Notes under the pieces: generated by a model
The model's database searches: none
What the model was told of the DNA's origin: nothing
Seen by the model: the letters and a program-made list of their open reading frames with translations, nothing else
Shown here: one piece after another, positions 14,614 through 57,914 of the stretch
Position numbering within the stretch: position 1 is the first letter of the stretch
Layout: every line of letters starts with the position of its first letter
Assembly (NCBI RefSeq): GCF_044324785.1
Contig: NZ_CP172127.1
DNA from: Escherichia coli
GTDB lineage: Bacteria; Pseudomonadota; Gammaproteobacteria; Enterobacterales; Enterobacteriaceae
Reading direction: 5' to 3' (one strand)
Length of the DNA stretch: 64,000 bases
Position numbers and translations under genes: made by a program

Positions 14614-14903
14614 AAAAAATCGACCTGAGAAAAGCTGCACGCGGTCGCGCTTGTACTGTGCGTATCCCCGGTGTGTGCAATCACAATCCTGAAACCAGTG
14701 TACTGGCTCACTACCACCTCGCCGGAACATGCGGAACAGCAATCAAACCACACGATATGCAGGGCGCTATCGCCTGCAGTGCGTGTCACGATGCTATCGA
14801 CGGACGTACAAAAACAGATTACGAGCGTGATTCCTTATTACTGATGCACACAGAGGGCGTTTTAAGGACGTTGGCCATCTGGCGTAACGAGGGATTCATC
14901 TGA
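14610..14903 (+). CDS. DUF1364-family putative nuclease (YbcO-like)
   Basis: LRKAARGR.C.VRIPGVCN.NPETSVLAH ... ACSACHD.ID closely matches YbcO of DLP12 as recalled. Confidence 0.6.
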   Translation: MKKIDLRKAARGRACTVRIPGVCNHNPETSVLAHYHLAGTCGTAIKPHDMQGAIACSACHDAIDGRTKTDYERDSLLLMHTEGVLRTLAIWRNEGFI

Positions 14904-15574
14904 TGAGTAACGAGTATTTGTTGGAATATACCCGCATAAAACTGCGCGCTGCATTGCGGGATTTGTCTGGTGGTTCTAAGGGGCAGCTGGAAGCATTGTG
15001 TGAGCACCCGCCGGCAGACAAAAACGCATATCCACGCAAACATATTCATCGTGTGCAACTGGAGGACCGGACCGTTGATGCTCTGGTTACGCCAGTTTAC
15101 GCCCTGGAAAGTTTCAGCAGACGTCGTCCCGCGCCGCCGATGAATGATTTTGAATTCGCTGATTCATCGTGGCGCCGCGCCGTGAATTCGCTCGACGTTA
15201 GCCAGCAGGCGTGGTTGCGCTATTGCTACGGTGGTCACCTGGCGTTCAAACACCAAACAGCTATTTGTGAGGCTGTCTGGAGTCGCTATAAAGGACACAT
15301 CCCCGCGTCAACTCAGAGAAAAGTAGCTAAGCGCCTGCTTTCGTTGGTGTGGTTGTCCGTGCAGGCGGTTGCAGCAGCAAATAAACGCGAGGATTTTAAG
15401 GAGATGGCTGGATCTGCGCTAGCTGGAATGTTGTCTGTTTCTCGTTCCACCTGGTGCGAAACATACTCCCCGCACTGGGTAGGAATGAAAGAGGCGGTGA
15501 GAGCACTTGATGAAATGGCACTTCTTGCAACTTTGCATCATTATCAAAACCATTTAGACGACGTTTGCGTATAA
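14903..15574 (+). CDS. late-gene antitermination protein Q-like
   Basis: position between nin-like genes and the late promoter/lysis cassette; 223 aa. Confidence 0.5.
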   Translation: MSNEYLLEYTRIKLRAALRDLSGGSKGQLEALCEHPPADKNAYPRKHIHRVQLEDRTVDALVTPVYALESFSRRRPAPPMNDFEFADSSWRRAVNSLDVSQQAWLRYCYGGHLAFKHQTAICEAVWSRYKGHIPASTQRKVAKRLLSLVWLSVQAVAAANKREDFKEMAGSALAGMLSVSRSTWCETYSPHWVGMKEAVRALDEMALLATLHHYQNHLDDVCV

Positions 15575-21374: not shown

Positions 21375-21941
21375 ATGGCAAGTCAGGCTGAGGTCGCAGC
21401 ACATTTACTGCTATCTGATCGTCGTCTGCGCGATCTTGCAAAACTTCCGGGAGCCCCAGTCCCCCAAGGACGTGGCGATTGGGAACTTGACGCATGGCGC
21501 CATTTTTATATTCGTTATCTCCGGAGCAATAGACGCGACACAACTAGTAATGACGAACCGGAAGCTGGGGACAATTCTCCCGAAAAAAATCGCGAGCAGT
21601 GGTTGAAAAATGAGGAACGGCAGGAGCGAATCCTGATGGCTCGCGTGAAACGCCGCATTCTTGCTAAACGCTACGCGCCAATTGAATTAATCAGCGTATC
21701 TGTATCTCGCGTCGCAGTTGAATTACGTACCCGTGTCGAATCGTGGCCACCACGGTTAAAAAAGGTGTGGCCGGAAATGCCGCAGGAGGCGAGCAGTGTA
21801 TTACGAGAGGAGCTGGCAATAGCCCTGAATGAACTGGCAGACATACGAATCGACTTCAGCGATTACGATGTCAGCGATATCGAACGCGATCTCGACAGGG
21901 TTGAATCCCTTGCGCGTGACGATACCGATGACGGGGGTTGA
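21375..21941 (+). CDS. terminase small subunit
   Basis: position immediately upstream of and overlapping gpA-like large terminase; acidic C-terminus. Confidence 0.55.
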   Translation: MASQAEVAAHLLLSDRRLRDLAKLPGAPVPQGRGDWELDAWRHFYIRYLRSNRRDTTSNDEPEAGDNSPEKNREQWLKNEERQERILMARVKRRILAKRYAPIELISVSVSRVAVELRTRVESWPPRLKKVWPEMPQEASSVLREELAIALNELADIRIDFSDYDVSDIERDLDRVESLARDDTDDGG

Positions 21942-23790
21942 GTGGGCTGATAAACATTTTTATCTTCCCGAAGGCTCAAGCCATATTGCTGGCCACTGGA
22001 CGACTCAGCCGGTCCAGGTAGTGATGTTAAATATGATGACTAACGACGCGATAAAAATCGTGTCTGTTCGCAAATCAGCTCGTCTCGGTTATACAAAAAT
22101 ACTCGTCGCGGCGCTGCTCTATTTCGCTGAGCACAAAAAACGTAGTGCCGTGGTCTATCAGCCTATCGATGACGAATCGGATGGATTTGTCGCCGACGAG
22201 GTTGACCCCGCTATCGCCGAAATGCCGGTGATTCAGAAAATTTTCCCAGACTGGGATAAAAGCAACGAGCGTAACAATCTCCAGCGCAAAGAGATGAGCG
22301 GCGCAATTATTGATTTTCGCGGCGCGAGTACGCCGGGGAATTTTCGTCGACTGACGAAACAGGTTGTCGAAGGTGACGAGGTCGACGGCTGGCCGCTGGA
22401 GGTCGCTAAAAAAGGTAAAGGCGAAGGCTCGCCAATTGAGCTGGCGCTCGTTCGAATTAAGGGCGCAGCATACCCGAAAGCGATTTTTGGTTCGACGCCG
22501 ACCGTTACTGGCAAAAGCCATATAGAAATGTTGGAAGACGCGGCTGATCTGACGTTTCGTTTTTACCTGAAGTGTCCGCATTGTGGCGAGGAGCAGGTCC
22601 TGGTATTTGGTTTCGACGGTATCGAATACGGTCTCAAGTGGGATGACAGCCTGCAGACCAACGAGTCGAAATCGTCGTCCGCGTATTACCAGTGCTGCCA
22701 CTGCCCGGAGCATTTTTACTATCGCGATCTCGAAAAAATGGAGCTCGGGGGGCGCTGGATAGCCGAGGACTGCACCTGGACCCGAGACGGAATCCATTTT
22801 TTTGATCATGACAGTGGCGTCGTTCGCGCGCCGAAACACGCGGCGATCGTGATAAACGCCCTGTATTCACTAAACCTTGATGGATGGGGCGAGATTGTCA
22901 GCGAGTGGCTGAAAGCGAAGGGCGACCCACTCAAAGAAAAAACGTTTCATAACACGACGCTCGGCGAGCTTTGGAGCGACGTGGCCAGCGAGCAGCTGGA
23001 GCACGATATTCTGGTTAATCGCCGGGAAAAATACGCCAGCCAGGTTCCTGACGGTGTTGTTTATATAACCGGCGGCATCGACTCTCAGACGTCCGGGCGC
23101 TACGAGTGTTACGTGTGGGGCTGGGGAGCTGAGGAAGAGTGCTGGCTGATTGATAAAACAATCGTCCTCGGTCGCTACGACGAAGAGGACACGCTGCAGC
23201 GTGTCGACGGAGTGATTCGCAAACAATACCGGCGCAGCGACGGGACCACAATCGGCGTCAGCCGCTGGGCGTGGGATACCGGCGGTATAGATGCGCAGGT
23301 TGTTTATAACCGCTCGCTGAAACTCGGTCCGCTGTGGGTCATTCCAATTAAAGGCGCAAGCTCATACGGCCAGCCAGTCGTAAATATGCCGCGTACACGT
23401 AACGCGAATAAAGTTTATTTGTCGTTAATCGGTACTGACACAGCAAAAGATTTGCTCGCGATGCGCCTGCCACTGGAACCAGACCCAAAATCAGCGACAC
23501 CGGGTGCAATTCATTTTCCAAACGACGACGAAAAATTCGGCACAACAGAGGCAAAACAGCTCGTCTCTGAAGTTCTGATCCCGAAACTCATTAACGGTCG
23601 CGTCGTTTACCGCTGGGACAACCAGGGGCGGCGAAATGAGGCGCTCGACTGCTGGGTATACGGGCTGGCAGCGCTGCGTATCAGTAAAATTCGTTTCCAG
23701 CTCAATCTCGAGACGCTCGCTGAGCAACGGAAAAAATCACAAAACAAACTGTCTCTCGAGGAGATGGCGAGAATGCTCGGAGGGAGCTAA
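21829..23790 (+). CDS. terminase large subunit (lambda gpA family)
   Basis: VEWADKHFYLPEGS, VRKSARLGYTKIL, CPHCGEEQ, ITGGIDSQ, WGWGAEEECWLID, VIPIKGAS, RRNEALDC all parallel lambda A; start may be internal Met near 21928. Confidence 0.9.
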   Translation: MNWQTYESTSAITMSAISNAISTGLNPLRVTIPMTGVEWADKHFYLPEGSSHIAGHWTTQPVQVVMLNMMTNDAIKIVSVRKSARLGYTKILVAALLYFAEHKKRSAVVYQPIDDESDGFVADEVDPAIAEMPVIQKIFPDWDKSNERNNLQRKEMSGAIIDFRGASTPGNFRRLTKQVVEGDEVDGWPLEVAKKGKGEGSPIELALVRIKGAAYPKAIFGSTPTVTGKSHIEMLEDAADLTFRFYLKCPHCGEEQVLVFGFDGIEYGLKWDDSLQTNESKSSSAYYQCCHCPEHFYYRDLEKMELGGRWIAEDCTWTRDGIHFFDHDSGVVRAPKHAAIVINALYSLNLDGWGEIVSEWLKAKGDPLKEKTFHNTTLGELWSDVASEQLEHDILVNRREKYASQVPDGVVYITGGIDSQTSGRYECYVWGWGAEEECWLIDKTIVLGRYDEEDTLQRVDGVIRKQYRRSDGTTIGVSRWAWDTGGIDAQVVYNRSLKLGPLWVIPIKGASSYGQPVVNMPRTRNANKVYLSLIGTDTAKDLLAMRLPLEPDPKSATPGAIHFPNDDEKFGTTEAKQLVSEVLIPKLINGRVVYRWDNQGRRNEALDCWVYGLAALRISKIRFQLNLETLAEQRKKSQNKLSLEEMARMLGGS

Positions 23791-27230: not shown

Positions 27231-27251
27231 TGGCAAAAAAACTCAAAACAA

Positions 27252-27277
27252 GCCGCCTCCGGGCGGTTTTTTTATAC
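27252..27277 (+). terminator. intrinsic terminator / attenuator before major capsid gene
   Basis: ccgcc-tccg-ggcgg hairpin plus ttttttt. Confidence 0.6.
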
Positions 27278-27288
27278 AGGATATCTAA

Positions 27289-28323
27289 ATGAGCGATTCG
27301 TTTACTACGTCAGAACTCATTACCGCGACACAGCAGGTATTTAAGTTCAATCCGTTATTTTTAAGACTTTTTTTTCGTGAGACATACACGTTTACGAGCG
27401 AAGAGGTTTTTCTGGATAAAATCCCGGGAAAAGTGAACATGGCCGTGTACTGCGCGCCGATGATCACCGGCAAAGTTGACCGCACTCGCGGCTATTCAAC
27501 GAACCATTTCAAACCGGGTTACACGAAGCCGAAACACACGATCAATCCGAATATGAGCATCAAGCGCGCCGCAGGTGAGCAGATTGGCCAGCCGGAAACG
27601 CCGGTCGAACGTCGTGCAAAAATTATCATGCAGAACCTGCTCGACGAGGAGCTCAGCATCAGTCAGCTCGAAGAGTTCCAGGCAGTGCAGGCGGTTCTGT
27701 ACGGTAAATACACCGTCTCTGGCAGCAATATCGAGACCTATGAGATCGATATGAGCCGCAGCGCGACGAATAACGTCACTCAGTCCGGTTCGACAGCTTG
27801 GTCGACTCAGGACGCAGAAACGTATGACCCGAGCGACGATATCGAATCCTATGCGGACCTCGCCTCCGGTGCTGTTAACGTGATAATTATGGACGGTAAA
27901 GCCTGGAAGCAGTTGAAGCGCTTTAAAAAATTCTGGACGACACTGGATACGCGCCGTGGCTCAAACAGCCAGCTCGAAGTCGCGCTGAAAAACCTGGGCG
28001 ATGTCGTTAGCTTTAAGGGCTATTACGGCGACACGGCGCTGTTCGTTTACAAGGGGCAATATATTGACCCTGTAACAGGCACTGAAACGCGTTATATGCC
28101 GGATAACACGATGATCCTGGGCAACACAAAAAATCGCGGACTCCGCACCTATGGCGCGATCCAGGACGAGGACGCGCTGAAAGAGGGTATCTGCGAGGCC
28201 ACGCGTTATCCAAAAGTCTGGACTACGACCGGCGATCCGGCAGTGACGCAGACAATGACCCAATCCGCGCCAGCGATGGTCCTCACCGACGCCGACGCGT
28301 TTGTCGTCGTAAAAATCGCGTAA
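27289..28323 (+). CDS. major capsid protein (lambda gpE family)
   Basis: FKFNPLFLRLFFRE, IPGKVNMA, RRAKIIMQNLLDEEL, TRRGSNS, NTKNRGLRTYG parallel lambda E. Confidence 0.9.
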   Translation: MSDSFTTSELITATQQVFKFNPLFLRLFFRETYTFTSEEVFLDKIPGKVNMAVYCAPMITGKVDRTRGYSTNHFKPGYTKPKHTINPNMSIKRAAGEQIGQPETPVERRAKIIMQNLLDEELSISQLEEFQAVQAVLYGKYTVSGSNIETYEIDMSRSATNNVTQSGSTAWSTQDAETYDPSDDIESYADLASGAVNVIIMDGKAWKQLKRFKKFWTTLDTRRGSNSQLEVALKNLGDVVSFKGYYGDTALFVYKGQYIDPVTGTETRYMPDNTMILGNTKNRGLRTYGAIQDEDALKEGICEATRYPKVWTTTGDPAVTQTMTQSAPAMVLTDADAFVVVKIA

Positions 28324-28346
28324 GAGCCGAAAGGCTCTTTTTTTAG
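28324..28346 (+). terminator. intrinsic terminator after major capsid gene
   Basis: agagcc-gaaa-ggctct hairpin plus ttttttt. Confidence 0.7.
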
Positions 28347-28355
28347 GGAATTAGC

Positions 28356-28769
28356 ATGAGCACAAAAACAGAATTGCTGGCGCGCATTGACGATTTGAGC
28401 GCCCAGCTCGGTCGCGAATTGCCGCGCAGCGGGACTATTGCTGAACTGGAATCAATCGTCGCTGGCGCTGAGTCAGAGCTCGATATTCTGAACGAGCAAT
28501 CCGGTGACGCGAGTGATGCCAACATTAATGCGAACGCATCAGATGAAACTGATGATGACAGCGCAGAACAACCGTCAATCGCGAGCACGACGTCACAACC
28601 AGAACTGTCTCCCGCTACGCGCCGCGTTAAGCTGCGTAACACGCTGGATGTATATCACTACGTGAACGGGCGTCGCGTTCGCGAGATTGTTGCCGCTGGC
28701 CGTGAAATTGTTGTTGATTCACCAGAGGTTGCAGACCTCATCGCAGCTGATCACGTTTACGCTCTATGA
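28356..28769 (+). CDS. DNA packaging protein (lambda gpFI-like)
   Basis: N-terminus MSTKTELLARIDDLSAQLGRELPRSGTIAELESIVA resembles lambda FI. Confidence 0.55.
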   Translation: MSTKTELLARIDDLSAQLGRELPRSGTIAELESIVAGAESELDILNEQSGDASDANINANASDETDDDSAEQPSIASTTSQPELSPATRRVKLRNTLDVYHYVNGRRVREIVAAGREIVVDSPEVADLIAADHVYAL

Positions 28770-29146
28770 GCTACTACGATGACCTCCGGGCCGGCGATGA
28801 GGAGATGATTCTGGAGTGGGGACGGCCCGTTAAATTACGCGGTAAAACCGCCCCCATTATCGCTATTTTCAACGAGCCTTACGCGCGCGTTGACGTTCCT
28901 CACGCTGGTTTTATTACCGGTACAGTAACGAGCCTGACGGCGCTCTCAGACGACGTCGCTGGCATTGTTGCGCGTGACGTCGTCCAGGTTCCAAAGCAGC
29001 GCAGTATCGCTGATGACGGCTCAGTTACCTGGTCTTGTTGGACCGATTACGTTGTTAAAGAGCCTCAACCTGATGGCACAGGGCTCACGAATATTTTTTT
29101 AGAGCCTCACACGTCCAGCGAAAACAGCGAGTATTCAAAATACTAA
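28766..29146 (+). CDS. head completion / head-tail connector protein (FII-position)
   Basis: position after FI-like gene. Confidence 0.4.
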   Translation: MSYYDDLRAGDEEMILEWGRPVKLRGKTAPIIAIFNEPYARVDVPHAGFITGTVTSLTALSDDVAGIVARDVVQVPKQRSIADDGSVTWSCWTDYVVKEPQPDGTGLTNIFLEPHTSSENSEYSKY

Positions 29147-29167
29147 GTGGGACCGCGGTCCCACTTA
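29144..29167. other. 24-bp perfect palindrome (taagtgggaccgcggtcccactta) at head/tail module junction
   Basis: perfect inverted repeat overlapping the stop codon; no T-run. Confidence 0.6.
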
Positions 29168-29177
29168 AGGGGGAACC

Positions 29178-29858
29178 GTGGCCGATTTACGTAGTAACGC
29201 GCAGATGTTCGATATCGATGTTTCGGCGCTGGAGCAGCTCAGAGTCGAAATCAGCGCGACGCAACATCAGATGCTGATGGCATACAACAGAGCGCTGAAC
29301 CGAACTGCAAAGCATATGCACCGAATTTCAGCAGGAATTATTTTGACTGCACTGGCAGCTAAAAATCATAAGGCCGTAAATAAACGAATCAAACCGTTCA
29401 TTAAGCGCCGCAATTTTACGAAAGAAGGGGCAGGAGATCTGAGTAGCGTAAAACTCTGGTACGGCCTGAACGATTTCCGTGTATCTGAGCTAAAGGGGCG
29501 ATTACAAAATCCCAGGAAGCAGAAGCAGCCTCGCAATCCAGAGACCGGTCAATTTTTGAAAACAAAAAAAGGCGCTCGAGGGGCAACTTTTACGCCCAAA
29601 AGTGCAGGGCTGGCGATGATTAGTTGGCCAGATTCATTCGTAGCGAAACGCTACGGTGCGAAAAGCGTCTGGATTCGACTGGCTCGCGGAGGAATCGAAG
29701 AGGCTCGCGTACCTGTGCACGACGCGCTTGAGGATGCTATCGATGATTATATTTTTGAAAACATTGGCCCTGTTTTCATGGACTTTTTTGAGAAAGATTT
29801 GCGCGGTCGAGTGAAAGGACGCGTTCACGTAGACCCTAAAACAGGTAAACGATTATGA
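29178..29858 (+). CDS. hypothetical virion morphogenesis / tail completion protein
   Basis: GTG start with GGGGGAA RBS; first gene of tail module. Confidence 0.4.
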   Translation: MADLRSNAQMFDIDVSALEQLRVEISATQHQMLMAYNRALNRTAKHMHRISAGIILTALAAKNHKAVNKRIKPFIKRRNFTKEGAGDLSSVKLWYGLNDFRVSELKGRLQNPRKQKQPRNPETGQFLKTKKGARGATFTPKSAGLAMISWPDSFVAKRYGAKSVWIRLARGGIEEARVPVHDALEDAIDDYIFENIGPVFMDFFEKDLRGRVKGRVHVDPKTGKRL

Positions 29859-30391
29859 GCGGACTGGATGCATTTGACGAATATCTTGATCGCGTTAAAG
29901 GCGCGGTTTTACAAATACCGTTCATCAAAACATTCGGAATTTATCCAGAAATTCCGGCAGGATTTGAAACGCCAGCTCTGTTCCTGGAAATCAGCAACTG
30001 GTCACAGAGTGACGAATCGGTTCCAGGCTCAATTCAGTCAGTCGAGCTGTCGTGTAATTTGTATTTGCTGCGTGAGTTTGCTGCGGATCGGTACGGACTG
30101 AAATCGCAGAATGCAGCGCTCTATATGACGAGCTGGATTAATGGGCGAATGTTTGGTGCCGGAACTAAACCAGCAAAATTCAGCGACGCGGAACCGTGTG
30201 ACTGGATTAAAAACGGGCAGTCAGTCGGCTCGCATTCAGTTCAGTGCGTGTCGTTCACGCAGGTTGTCGGCGTTGGTCCCGATATTTTCGATTATCCCTC
30301 ACAGGGAACACTGAAAAATATATACGTCGGAATAGCGCCAGATATCGGCGCAGAACACGAGAGCGACTACTATGGCCCAATCGGACGATGA
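29855..30391 (+). CDS. hypothetical tail-associated protein
   Basis: coupled to neighbours in tail operon. Confidence 0.4.
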   Translation: MSGLDAFDEYLDRVKGAVLQIPFIKTFGIYPEIPAGFETPALFLEISNWSQSDESVPGSIQSVELSCNLYLLREFAADRYGLKSQNAALYMTSWINGRMFGAGTKPAKFSDAEPCDWIKNGQSVGSHSVQCVSFTQVVGVGPDIFDYPSQGTLKNIYVGIAPDIGAEHESDYYGPIGR

Positions 30392-39382: not shown

Positions 39383-39544
39383 TACAAAATCAAGCGCTAC
39401 CAGAGCACTTAACAAGTATAAAAATAATAAAAAAAACTACGAGCATAAATGTAAAACAACCTGATGGTATTTTTTTTTGACGCCGAAATACTAATACCTC
39501 TCCGACTACTAAAATTAATTCTCATTATGAAATCCTTTTAATTA

Positions 39545-39769
39545 ATGGGGCCCCAAATGATTACATACACTACACGGGACGGTGACCGTCTCGATCAGAT
39601 CTGCCTTGCTGTCTACGGGAGAACAGCAAAAACGACAGAAACCGTGTTATATCAGGTTTTAAATTACGGCGTAACGGATATGTGTGCCGTGTTTCGTGCA
39701 GGAGAAAAAATTGTTTTACCAGAAATCGACCCCGAACCGGCTAAAAAAGAAACGCAATTATGGGATTGA
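39545..39769 (+). CDS. tail protein X (LysM-like)
   Basis: DRLDQICLAVYGRT ... ETVL pattern as P2 gpX. Confidence 0.7.
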   Translation: MGPQMITYTTRDGDRLDQICLAVYGRTAKTTETVLYQVLNYGVTDMCAVFRAGEKIVLPEIDPEPAKKETQLWD

Positions 39770-39772
39770 TGA

Positions 39773-57744: not shown

Positions 57745-57914
57745 AAGGGTATCATTAACACCAGGCCGGATCACATCCGGCCTGGTGTGCCAATGCCTGC
57801 AATGAATGATAGTCGCGTCTTATCATGCCACCATTATAAAATTATCGCTGTTTTGCGGTACGTTATCGCCGGGTTATGCCAGAATCATAAAAAAGCAGGT
57901 TGGGAGTCGTCAGG

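Follow-up and report, generated by a model that had tools for sequence, protein, structure and literature searches.

The FII–Neck1 junction of a lambdoid prophage

The window, that is, the whole 64,000-nucleotide stretch of Escherichia coli DNA that was analysed, carries a lambdoid prophage that combines a lambda-type head with a P2-type contractile tail. On the plus strand, the genes for the lambda-type terminase gpA, the portal, the S49 protease C, the decoration protein D, the major capsid protein E, and FI lie upstream of the junction studied here, and P2-type baseplate, sheath, and tube genes lie downstream. All genes from terminase through baseplate, including both neighbors of the hairpin described below, are on the plus strand. 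The features of the locus and of the operon around it are as follows.

14903–15574, plus strand: Q antiterminator gene (PF06323, E = 9e-39; the annotation of the relative L006 agrees)
27250–27269, plus strand: terminator-like hairpin between D and E (D–E), flanked by an A-tract and a T-tract; lambda has a hairpin at the same junction
28322–28339, plus strand: hairpin between E and FI (E–FI), AAGAGCC-GAAA-GGCUCUU, followed by a U-tract; lambda has a hairpin at the same junction
28766–29146, plus strand: gpFII-like head-tail attachment or head-closure gene, FII (PF05354, phrog_82)
29144–29167, plus strand: 24-bp perfect palindrome, TAAGTGGGACCGCGGTCCCACTTA; as RNA, a 10-bp stem with a CGCG tetraloop
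29147–29164, plus strand: conserved 18-bp core, GTGGGACC-GC-GGTCCCAC, the part retained in distant relatives
29167–29174, plus strand: Shine-Dalgarno (SD) region of Neck1, (U)AAGGGGGA, whose first base is the last one of the palindrome
29171–29189, plus strand: imperfect direct copy (15/19) of 29149–29167, GGGAACCGTGGCCGATTTA, which spans the G's of the SD, the GTG, and the first Neck1 codons
29178–29858, plus strand: tail-completion or Neck1 gene with a GTG start (phrog_27)

The stem starts with the TAA stop codon of FII (29144–29146), which supplies its first three bases; the SD of the downstream gene reads AAGGGGG. The start codon assigned to Neck1 is the same in the RefSeq annotation of relatives. 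On the plus strand, the palindrome is followed by AGGGGGAACC and then by the GTG at 29178, and a T-run is absent. In other words, one feature of an intrinsic terminator, the GC-rich stem-loop, is present, and the other, a U-tract directly 3′ of the stem on the plus strand, is not. The first-pass annotation had read these elements (the 24-bp perfect palindrome, the overlap with the stop codon, the downstream GTG start, and the lack of a U-tract) from the letters, and all of them are confirmed in the sequence. Its label of a head–tail boundary is roughly right. FII and Neck1 are connector genes alike, and relatives keep them next to each other.

Lambdoid late genes are expressed as one long transcript, and the Q-modified polymerase ignores terminators. 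The Q gene implies that the lysis, head, and tail genes share one late transcript that is resistant to terminators. The junction shows a stable structure at a cistron boundary inside one transcription unit, in the order stop codon, hairpin, and SD, downstream of Q. Elsewhere in the tail module, the closest annotated E. coli relative (L006) carries a small minus-strand gene labelled 'superinfection immunity' (30066–30266); the gap in the window that matches this gene (39383–39772) contains an A8/T9 inverted repeat at 39429–39478.

The 24-mer tops the window, as the next-longest perfect palindrome in the 64 kb is 18 bp, and in the window's copy its dyad symmetry is perfect over all 24 bp. The naive expectation for a palindrome of at least 24 bp is approximately 0.004 per window, and such a palindrome occurred in 5/300 and 2/600 dinucleotide-preserving shuffles (approximately 0.3–2% per window). 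By itself, the length is unusual, neither overwhelming nor decisive; its conservation in relatives places the element beyond chance. Folded as RNA, the 24-mer is predicted to form its 10-bp stem, with five G–C pairs, and the CGCG loop at −15.7 kcal/mol (z = −4.96 versus shuffles).

Two further repeats in the window were recorded. The 18-bp perfect palindrome, GACACGCTGCAGCGTGTC, lies at 23188–23205 within the terminase large-subunit gene (21829–23790), and the chance expectation for palindromes of this length is approximately 0.24 per 64 kb. In the non-phage flank, a perfect 14-nt inverted repeat with a 3-nt spacer (ACACCAGGCCGGAT / ATCCGGCCTGGTGT, 57758–57788) contains GCCGGAT and resembles a REP element.

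Conservation and replacement of the hairpin among relatives

Of 5,426 complete E. coli genomes, 445 carry this prophage family, among them strains labelled ST131. Near-identical copies of the junction show 90–97% identity, and four deposited 'vB_EcoM' records also belong here. A tblastn search with FII in the annotated phage collection found just these four near-identical records and was uninformative on divergence. For a wider comparison, junctions were gathered next to Neck1 homologues with identities from 98% down to 35%, encoded in 40 viral contigs and 12 assemblies. FII and Neck1 are adjacent in every relative with a called or annotated upstream gene, including annotated phages at approximately 30% identity.

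A comparison with related phages, which the first-pass annotation had proposed, recovers the core of the palindrome at the same FII–Neck1 junction even where Neck1 identity has fallen to 48–63% (L051, L054, L055, and L058). The core consensus is GTGGGMCC-GC-GGKCCCAC; it follows the stop codon (TAA or TGA) directly and precedes the start codon by 11–16 nt. It is mainly the closer relatives that retain the outer TAAG/CTTA pairs. The perfect 24-bp form is limited to the closest relatives of the window, and the wider close clade shows variants of the loop and the arms. Among close relatives, the centers are CGCG, CTCG (most E. coli copies), and CGTG; in most relatives the center is asymmetric (CCTCGG or CCGTGG), and the dyad is broken in most E. 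coli copies. The stem itself shows small defects, namely a G·U pair with a 1-nt deletion in L009–L012 and a loop-adjacent mismatch in L008.

Pairing is kept through this variation. Over 14 distinct type-1 junctions, 88.6% of cells form pairs, versus 24–55% when the partners are slid. Pair 18–25 is A–U in eight sequences and C–G in five, with no one-sided intermediates and L048 as the sole unpaired exception; this covariation represents one or two evolutionary events. The strand signal (G·U versus A·C, 8 versus 4) weakly favors the plus strand. Moreover, selection retains the hairpin better than the adjacent coding DNA: the mean pairwise identity of the non-coding core is 0.85, versus 0.68 for the last 60 nt of FII. 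The core is also conserved beyond the needs of a purely structural role, and beyond the E–FI hairpin across the same loci.

The junction exists in several other states. In L023, exactly the 18-bp core is missing: TATTGA is followed directly by TTAGGGAGG, and L020 reads TATTGA-GTGGGCCCGCGGGCCCAC-TTAGGGAGG with identical flanks (junction at approximately 2467–2501 in this comparison). L023 is intact apart from the precise absence of the hairpin, so the hairpin is dispensable, and the earlier suggestion that the site coordinates head and tail expression was overstated. In L024, L025, and L057, an unrelated hairpin, UAGCGGGUCCGCCCGCUA, occupies the junction and also overlaps the stop codon. In L029, L049, and L050, AGCGGGCUUGCCCGCU is followed by eight T's, and by its sequence this junction hairpin qualifies as a canonical intrinsic terminator on the plus strand. 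Relatives of 46% identity or less have a short or zero intergenic gap and no convincing hairpin. In lambda, FII and Z are separated by 11 nt, TGA-AAGGGGGATGT-ATG; this gap contains no hairpin and has the same AAGGGGGA as the SD of the window. Since the lambda junction is this compact, the hairpin can be read as an 18-bp addition to a once-tight junction. L049 and L050 have a different head module at positions 1–751, yet the block of FII, hairpin, and Neck1 is retained; in L049, a single fused ORF of 1,187 aa combines the portal, ClpP-protease, and capsid domains, and a cement protein comes after it.

Three GC-rich hairpins, the palindrome among them, mark gene boundaries at the head end of the operon (D–E, E–FI, and FII–Neck1). 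Those at D–E and E–FI have U-tracts and stand on either side of the major capsid gene E. Like the palindrome, the E–FI hairpin begins at a stop codon, that of E, which lies inside its stem. The D–E and E–FI hairpins are retained in most relatives; L023 lacks the D–E hairpin, and L029 has a different head module. Additionally, a stem of AGCGGGC...GCCCGCU forms the E–FI terminator of L058 (612–660), with a close form in L055 (600–661), and essentially the same stem forms the type-2 FII–Neck1 hairpin of L024 and L029 (around 2467–2501). With the same stem at both junctions, the hairpins look interchangeable, and these sequences suggest that hairpins have been swapped or re-invented between junctions.

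Role of the hairpin and alternative readings

We consider the palindrome to be, quite probably, a functional RNA hairpin of the plus strand. The first-pass annotation had proposed an RNA processing or attenuation site, and its RNA-level part is borne out in kind: a conserved stem-loop lies between the stop codon and the SD, with a compensatory pair and loop variation, and unrelated hairpins, one of them a full terminator, replace it elsewhere. It may be a processing or stability site or a weak attenuator. Most likely, the palindrome is a stability or terminator-like element of an ordinary kind in the mRNA, rather than a special head–tail switch or a recombination joint.

For the stability role, we propose the following mechanism. 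Q-modified RNA polymerase would read through the hairpin. After endonuclease cuts, PNPase or RNase II, acting 3′ to 5′, would stall at the base of the stem, and through this stalling the 3′ end of the head-module message would stay protected. If the cut instead fell in the A/U-rich sequence immediately upstream, the tail message could begin with the hairpin as a 5′ stem-loop that protects it. In either mode, decay of the head half would be insulated from decay of the tail half. Both modes, protection of a 3′ end and a 5′ stem-loop, have been described in E. coli operons, in which protective intercistronic structures lead to differential decay, for example in malE–malF and papBA (PMC5927463). 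Because the U-tract is missing, at most weak termination or pausing of the non-antiterminated polymerase would be added to this effect. Whether the hairpin acts as such a nuclease barrier is, in our judgment, evenly balanced. Going by lambda, the FII and Neck1 proteins are each low-copy; the junction thus marks no obvious change in stoichiometry, which counts against a decay barrier. Furthermore, the predicted equilibrium fold of the window's own variant prefers an alternative pairing, which counts against formation of the hairpin.

This alternative pairing belongs to a different reading, in which the hairpin is a translational device for the Neck1 gene. In one form, the hairpin could prevent ribosomes from sliding to the start of Neck1 once they have finished FII, and so uncouple the two genes. 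In the form drawn from the window's variant, the hairpin could compete with a pairing that hides the SD and GTG, and ribosomes terminating on FII could open this pairing and couple the genes. The geometry is suggestive: the stop codon lies within the stem, the SD starts at the last stem base, the spacing from hairpin to start codon is near constant across relatives, and the hairpin has been inserted into a formerly tight junction, given the 11-nt gap of lambda and the hairpin-less distant relatives. Owing to the 15/19 direct copy, the palindrome region can pair with the G's of the SD, the GTG, and the first codons, and pairing of 29145–29162 with 29171–29188 is the predicted minimum-energy fold in a 90–115-nt context. 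However, the alternative pairing is not conserved. A fold that covers the SD and GTG is predicted for the window, L009, L016, L047, and L054 and is absent from the other relatives tested; the hairpin dominates (probability 0.5–1.0) in L001, L008, L017, L020, L051, L052, L055, and L058. Moreover, the SD is outside the conserved stem, the sole paired base of UAAGGGGG being the first, and the stem does not sequester it. SDs are weak or absent after the type-2 hairpins, and L023 combines a strong SD with no hairpin. An SD-sequestering switch, seen in the window's variant but not conserved, was therefore set aside, and a translational device of either form is unlikely.

We regard it as quite unlikely that the hairpin serves primarily as a transcription terminator or attenuator, on either strand. 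On the plus strand, it would be a weak terminator or pause site without a U-tract, acting on transcription that is not Q-modified and insulating the tail genes in the lysogen. The true plus-strand terminators at the orthologous junctions of L029, L049, and L050 and the terminator-like character of the D–E and E–FI hairpins fit this reading, whereas the missing U-tract, a defining feature of intrinsic terminators, does not. On the minus strand, where UAUUUUGAAU follows the palindrome, it would be an antisense terminator, and this reading gives the top terminator-like match in 19–39 kb (11 pairs, then TATTTTGAAT). However, the minus-strand T-run consists of the codons of the FII C-terminus (S-K-Y-stop); it is present in the hairpin-less L023 and degenerate in L051, L054, L055, and L058, which bear the hairpin. 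There is also no convincing minus-strand gene upstream, the only ORFs being nested in plus-strand genes, and the minus strand has two weak promoter-like matches (29392–29365 and 29880–29852), with fewer promoter-like matches in the region than in shuffles. An antisense terminator was rejected, as its T-run is FII coding sequence and is unlinked to the presence of the hairpin.

The palindrome might also be functionless, made and perfected by template switching during replication (quasi-palindrome correction) and carried neutrally. The 18-bp core does behave as a clean indel, present in L020 and absent in L023 between identical flanks, and the perfect 24-bp form is restricted to the closest relatives. 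Against neutrality, a non-coding 18-mer is kept at 0.85 identity where the flanking genes have diverged down to 48–60% amino-acid identity, one pair has changed in a compensatory manner, and an independent hairpin occupies the same site in other lineages. We consider neutral carriage improbable.

It is similarly improbable that the 18-bp core is a sequence-specific operator, as RNA or DNA, for a protein of the connector cassette or a host factor. A sequence-specific partner would account for the stronger conservation of the core relative both to the coding DNA on either side and to the E–FI hairpin at the same loci. If this were the case, the core would set the synthesis of the neck protein or uncouple the translation of head-completion from that of tail-completion functions.

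A site acting purely at the DNA level, either an operator for a dimeric regulator that coordinates the head and tail genes or a linker for module recombination, is highly improbable. The perfect dyad symmetry and the unusually conserved core would suit such a site, as would the joining of the FII–hairpin–Neck1 block to different head modules (L049 and L050) and to different tail gene orders (L054, L055, and L058). However, substitutions at the center break the dyad in most E. coli copies. The 64-kb window holds no further copy of the motif, even with three mismatches, and no enrichment of half-sites (3 found versus 7.7 expected), and no plus-strand promoter-like site was found within several kilobases of the palindrome. 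A scan of viral contigs for GTGGGMCCNNGGKCCCAC returned 53 stretches, 13 of which are this junction; two control palindromes of similar make-up gave 62 and 30, so the motif is not enriched. The matches outside the family are unrelated terminators, hairpins, or coding sequence and not joints of the FII/Neck1 type. These results lend no support to the protein-binding site offered by the first-pass annotation, which would be a single copy with unrepeated half-sites, no nearby plus-strand promoter, and no enrichment in viral contigs; nor was the same palindrome found at the module joints of other phages among the 53 viral stretches. The recombination joint that it also considered fares no better, as FII–Neck1 adjacency is conserved and the mosaic breakpoints fall within the neighboring genes, away from the palindrome. 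By sliding identity, they are located at approximately +114 inside Neck1 (L047 versus L052) and at approximately −136 from the Neck1 start, inside FII (L029 versus L024).

The viral scan also drew attention to an unrelated contig, IMGVR_UViG_3300036791_000702 (L071–L073, 19.5 kb), with seven copies of GTGGGACCACGGTCCCAC between and inside ORFs. This sequence occurs in two to four copies in a few other contigs, and the control palindromes occur as single copies only.

Known families of elements were considered as well. A REP or BIME element was rejected, with one copy of the motif in 64 kb at up to three mismatches, no enrichment of half-sites, and no Rfam match; an Rfam scan of 26.5–30.5 kb with E up to 10 gave only sub-threshold chance matches, none of them at the palindrome. 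CsrA-type GGA sites, assessed by eye, were discarded since the GGA of the stem is lost in the GGGCCC variants. P2 Ogr-type late promoters carry TGT-N12-ACA at about −55, and the dyad center here, approximately 22 nt upstream of the GTG, is too near to serve as such a promoter for Neck1.

Comparison with known intercistronic elements

If the hairpin does act as an mRNA stability element, this prophage would be another case of a phage late operon that shapes mRNA survival along a long antiterminated transcript by means of intercistronic hairpins. The prophage family supplies natural variants in which the hairpin is present, precisely absent, replaced, or extended by a U-tract. The practical value is modest: operon punctuation in prophages could be annotated better, and the hairpin could serve as an RNA stability element that is compact and portable. 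The hairpin opens no new question.

Among known systems, the protective intercistronic structures of E. coli, the REP hairpin of malE–malF and the 5′ stem-loop of papBA, share with this element a stable stem-loop at a gene boundary within a long polycistronic mRNA. Conservation among homologous operons and the presence of several hairpins per operon are likewise shared with this protective class (PMC5927463). In contrast to the malE–malF element, the motif of the window is unrelated to REP in sequence and is present as a single copy in the window. The present case also differs from the class as a whole in that FII and Neck1 are not obviously needed in different amounts.

Similar to the lambdoid terminators at D–E and E–FI, the element has a GC-rich stem located at or next to a stop codon and just before the next SD; it differs in having no U-tract on the coding strand, and the FII–Z junction of lambda is hairpin-less. 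With phage translational-coupling hairpins, it shares the stop codon in the stem, the abutting SD, and, in the window's variant, a predicted alternative fold that hides the start; in contrast to these, its SD lies beyond the conserved stem, and relatives do not conserve the alternative fold. A literature search found no paper on the FII–Neck1 junction. Collectively, the FII–Neck1 hairpin itself seems to be undescribed, and its kind is familiar from bacterial operons and from lambda.
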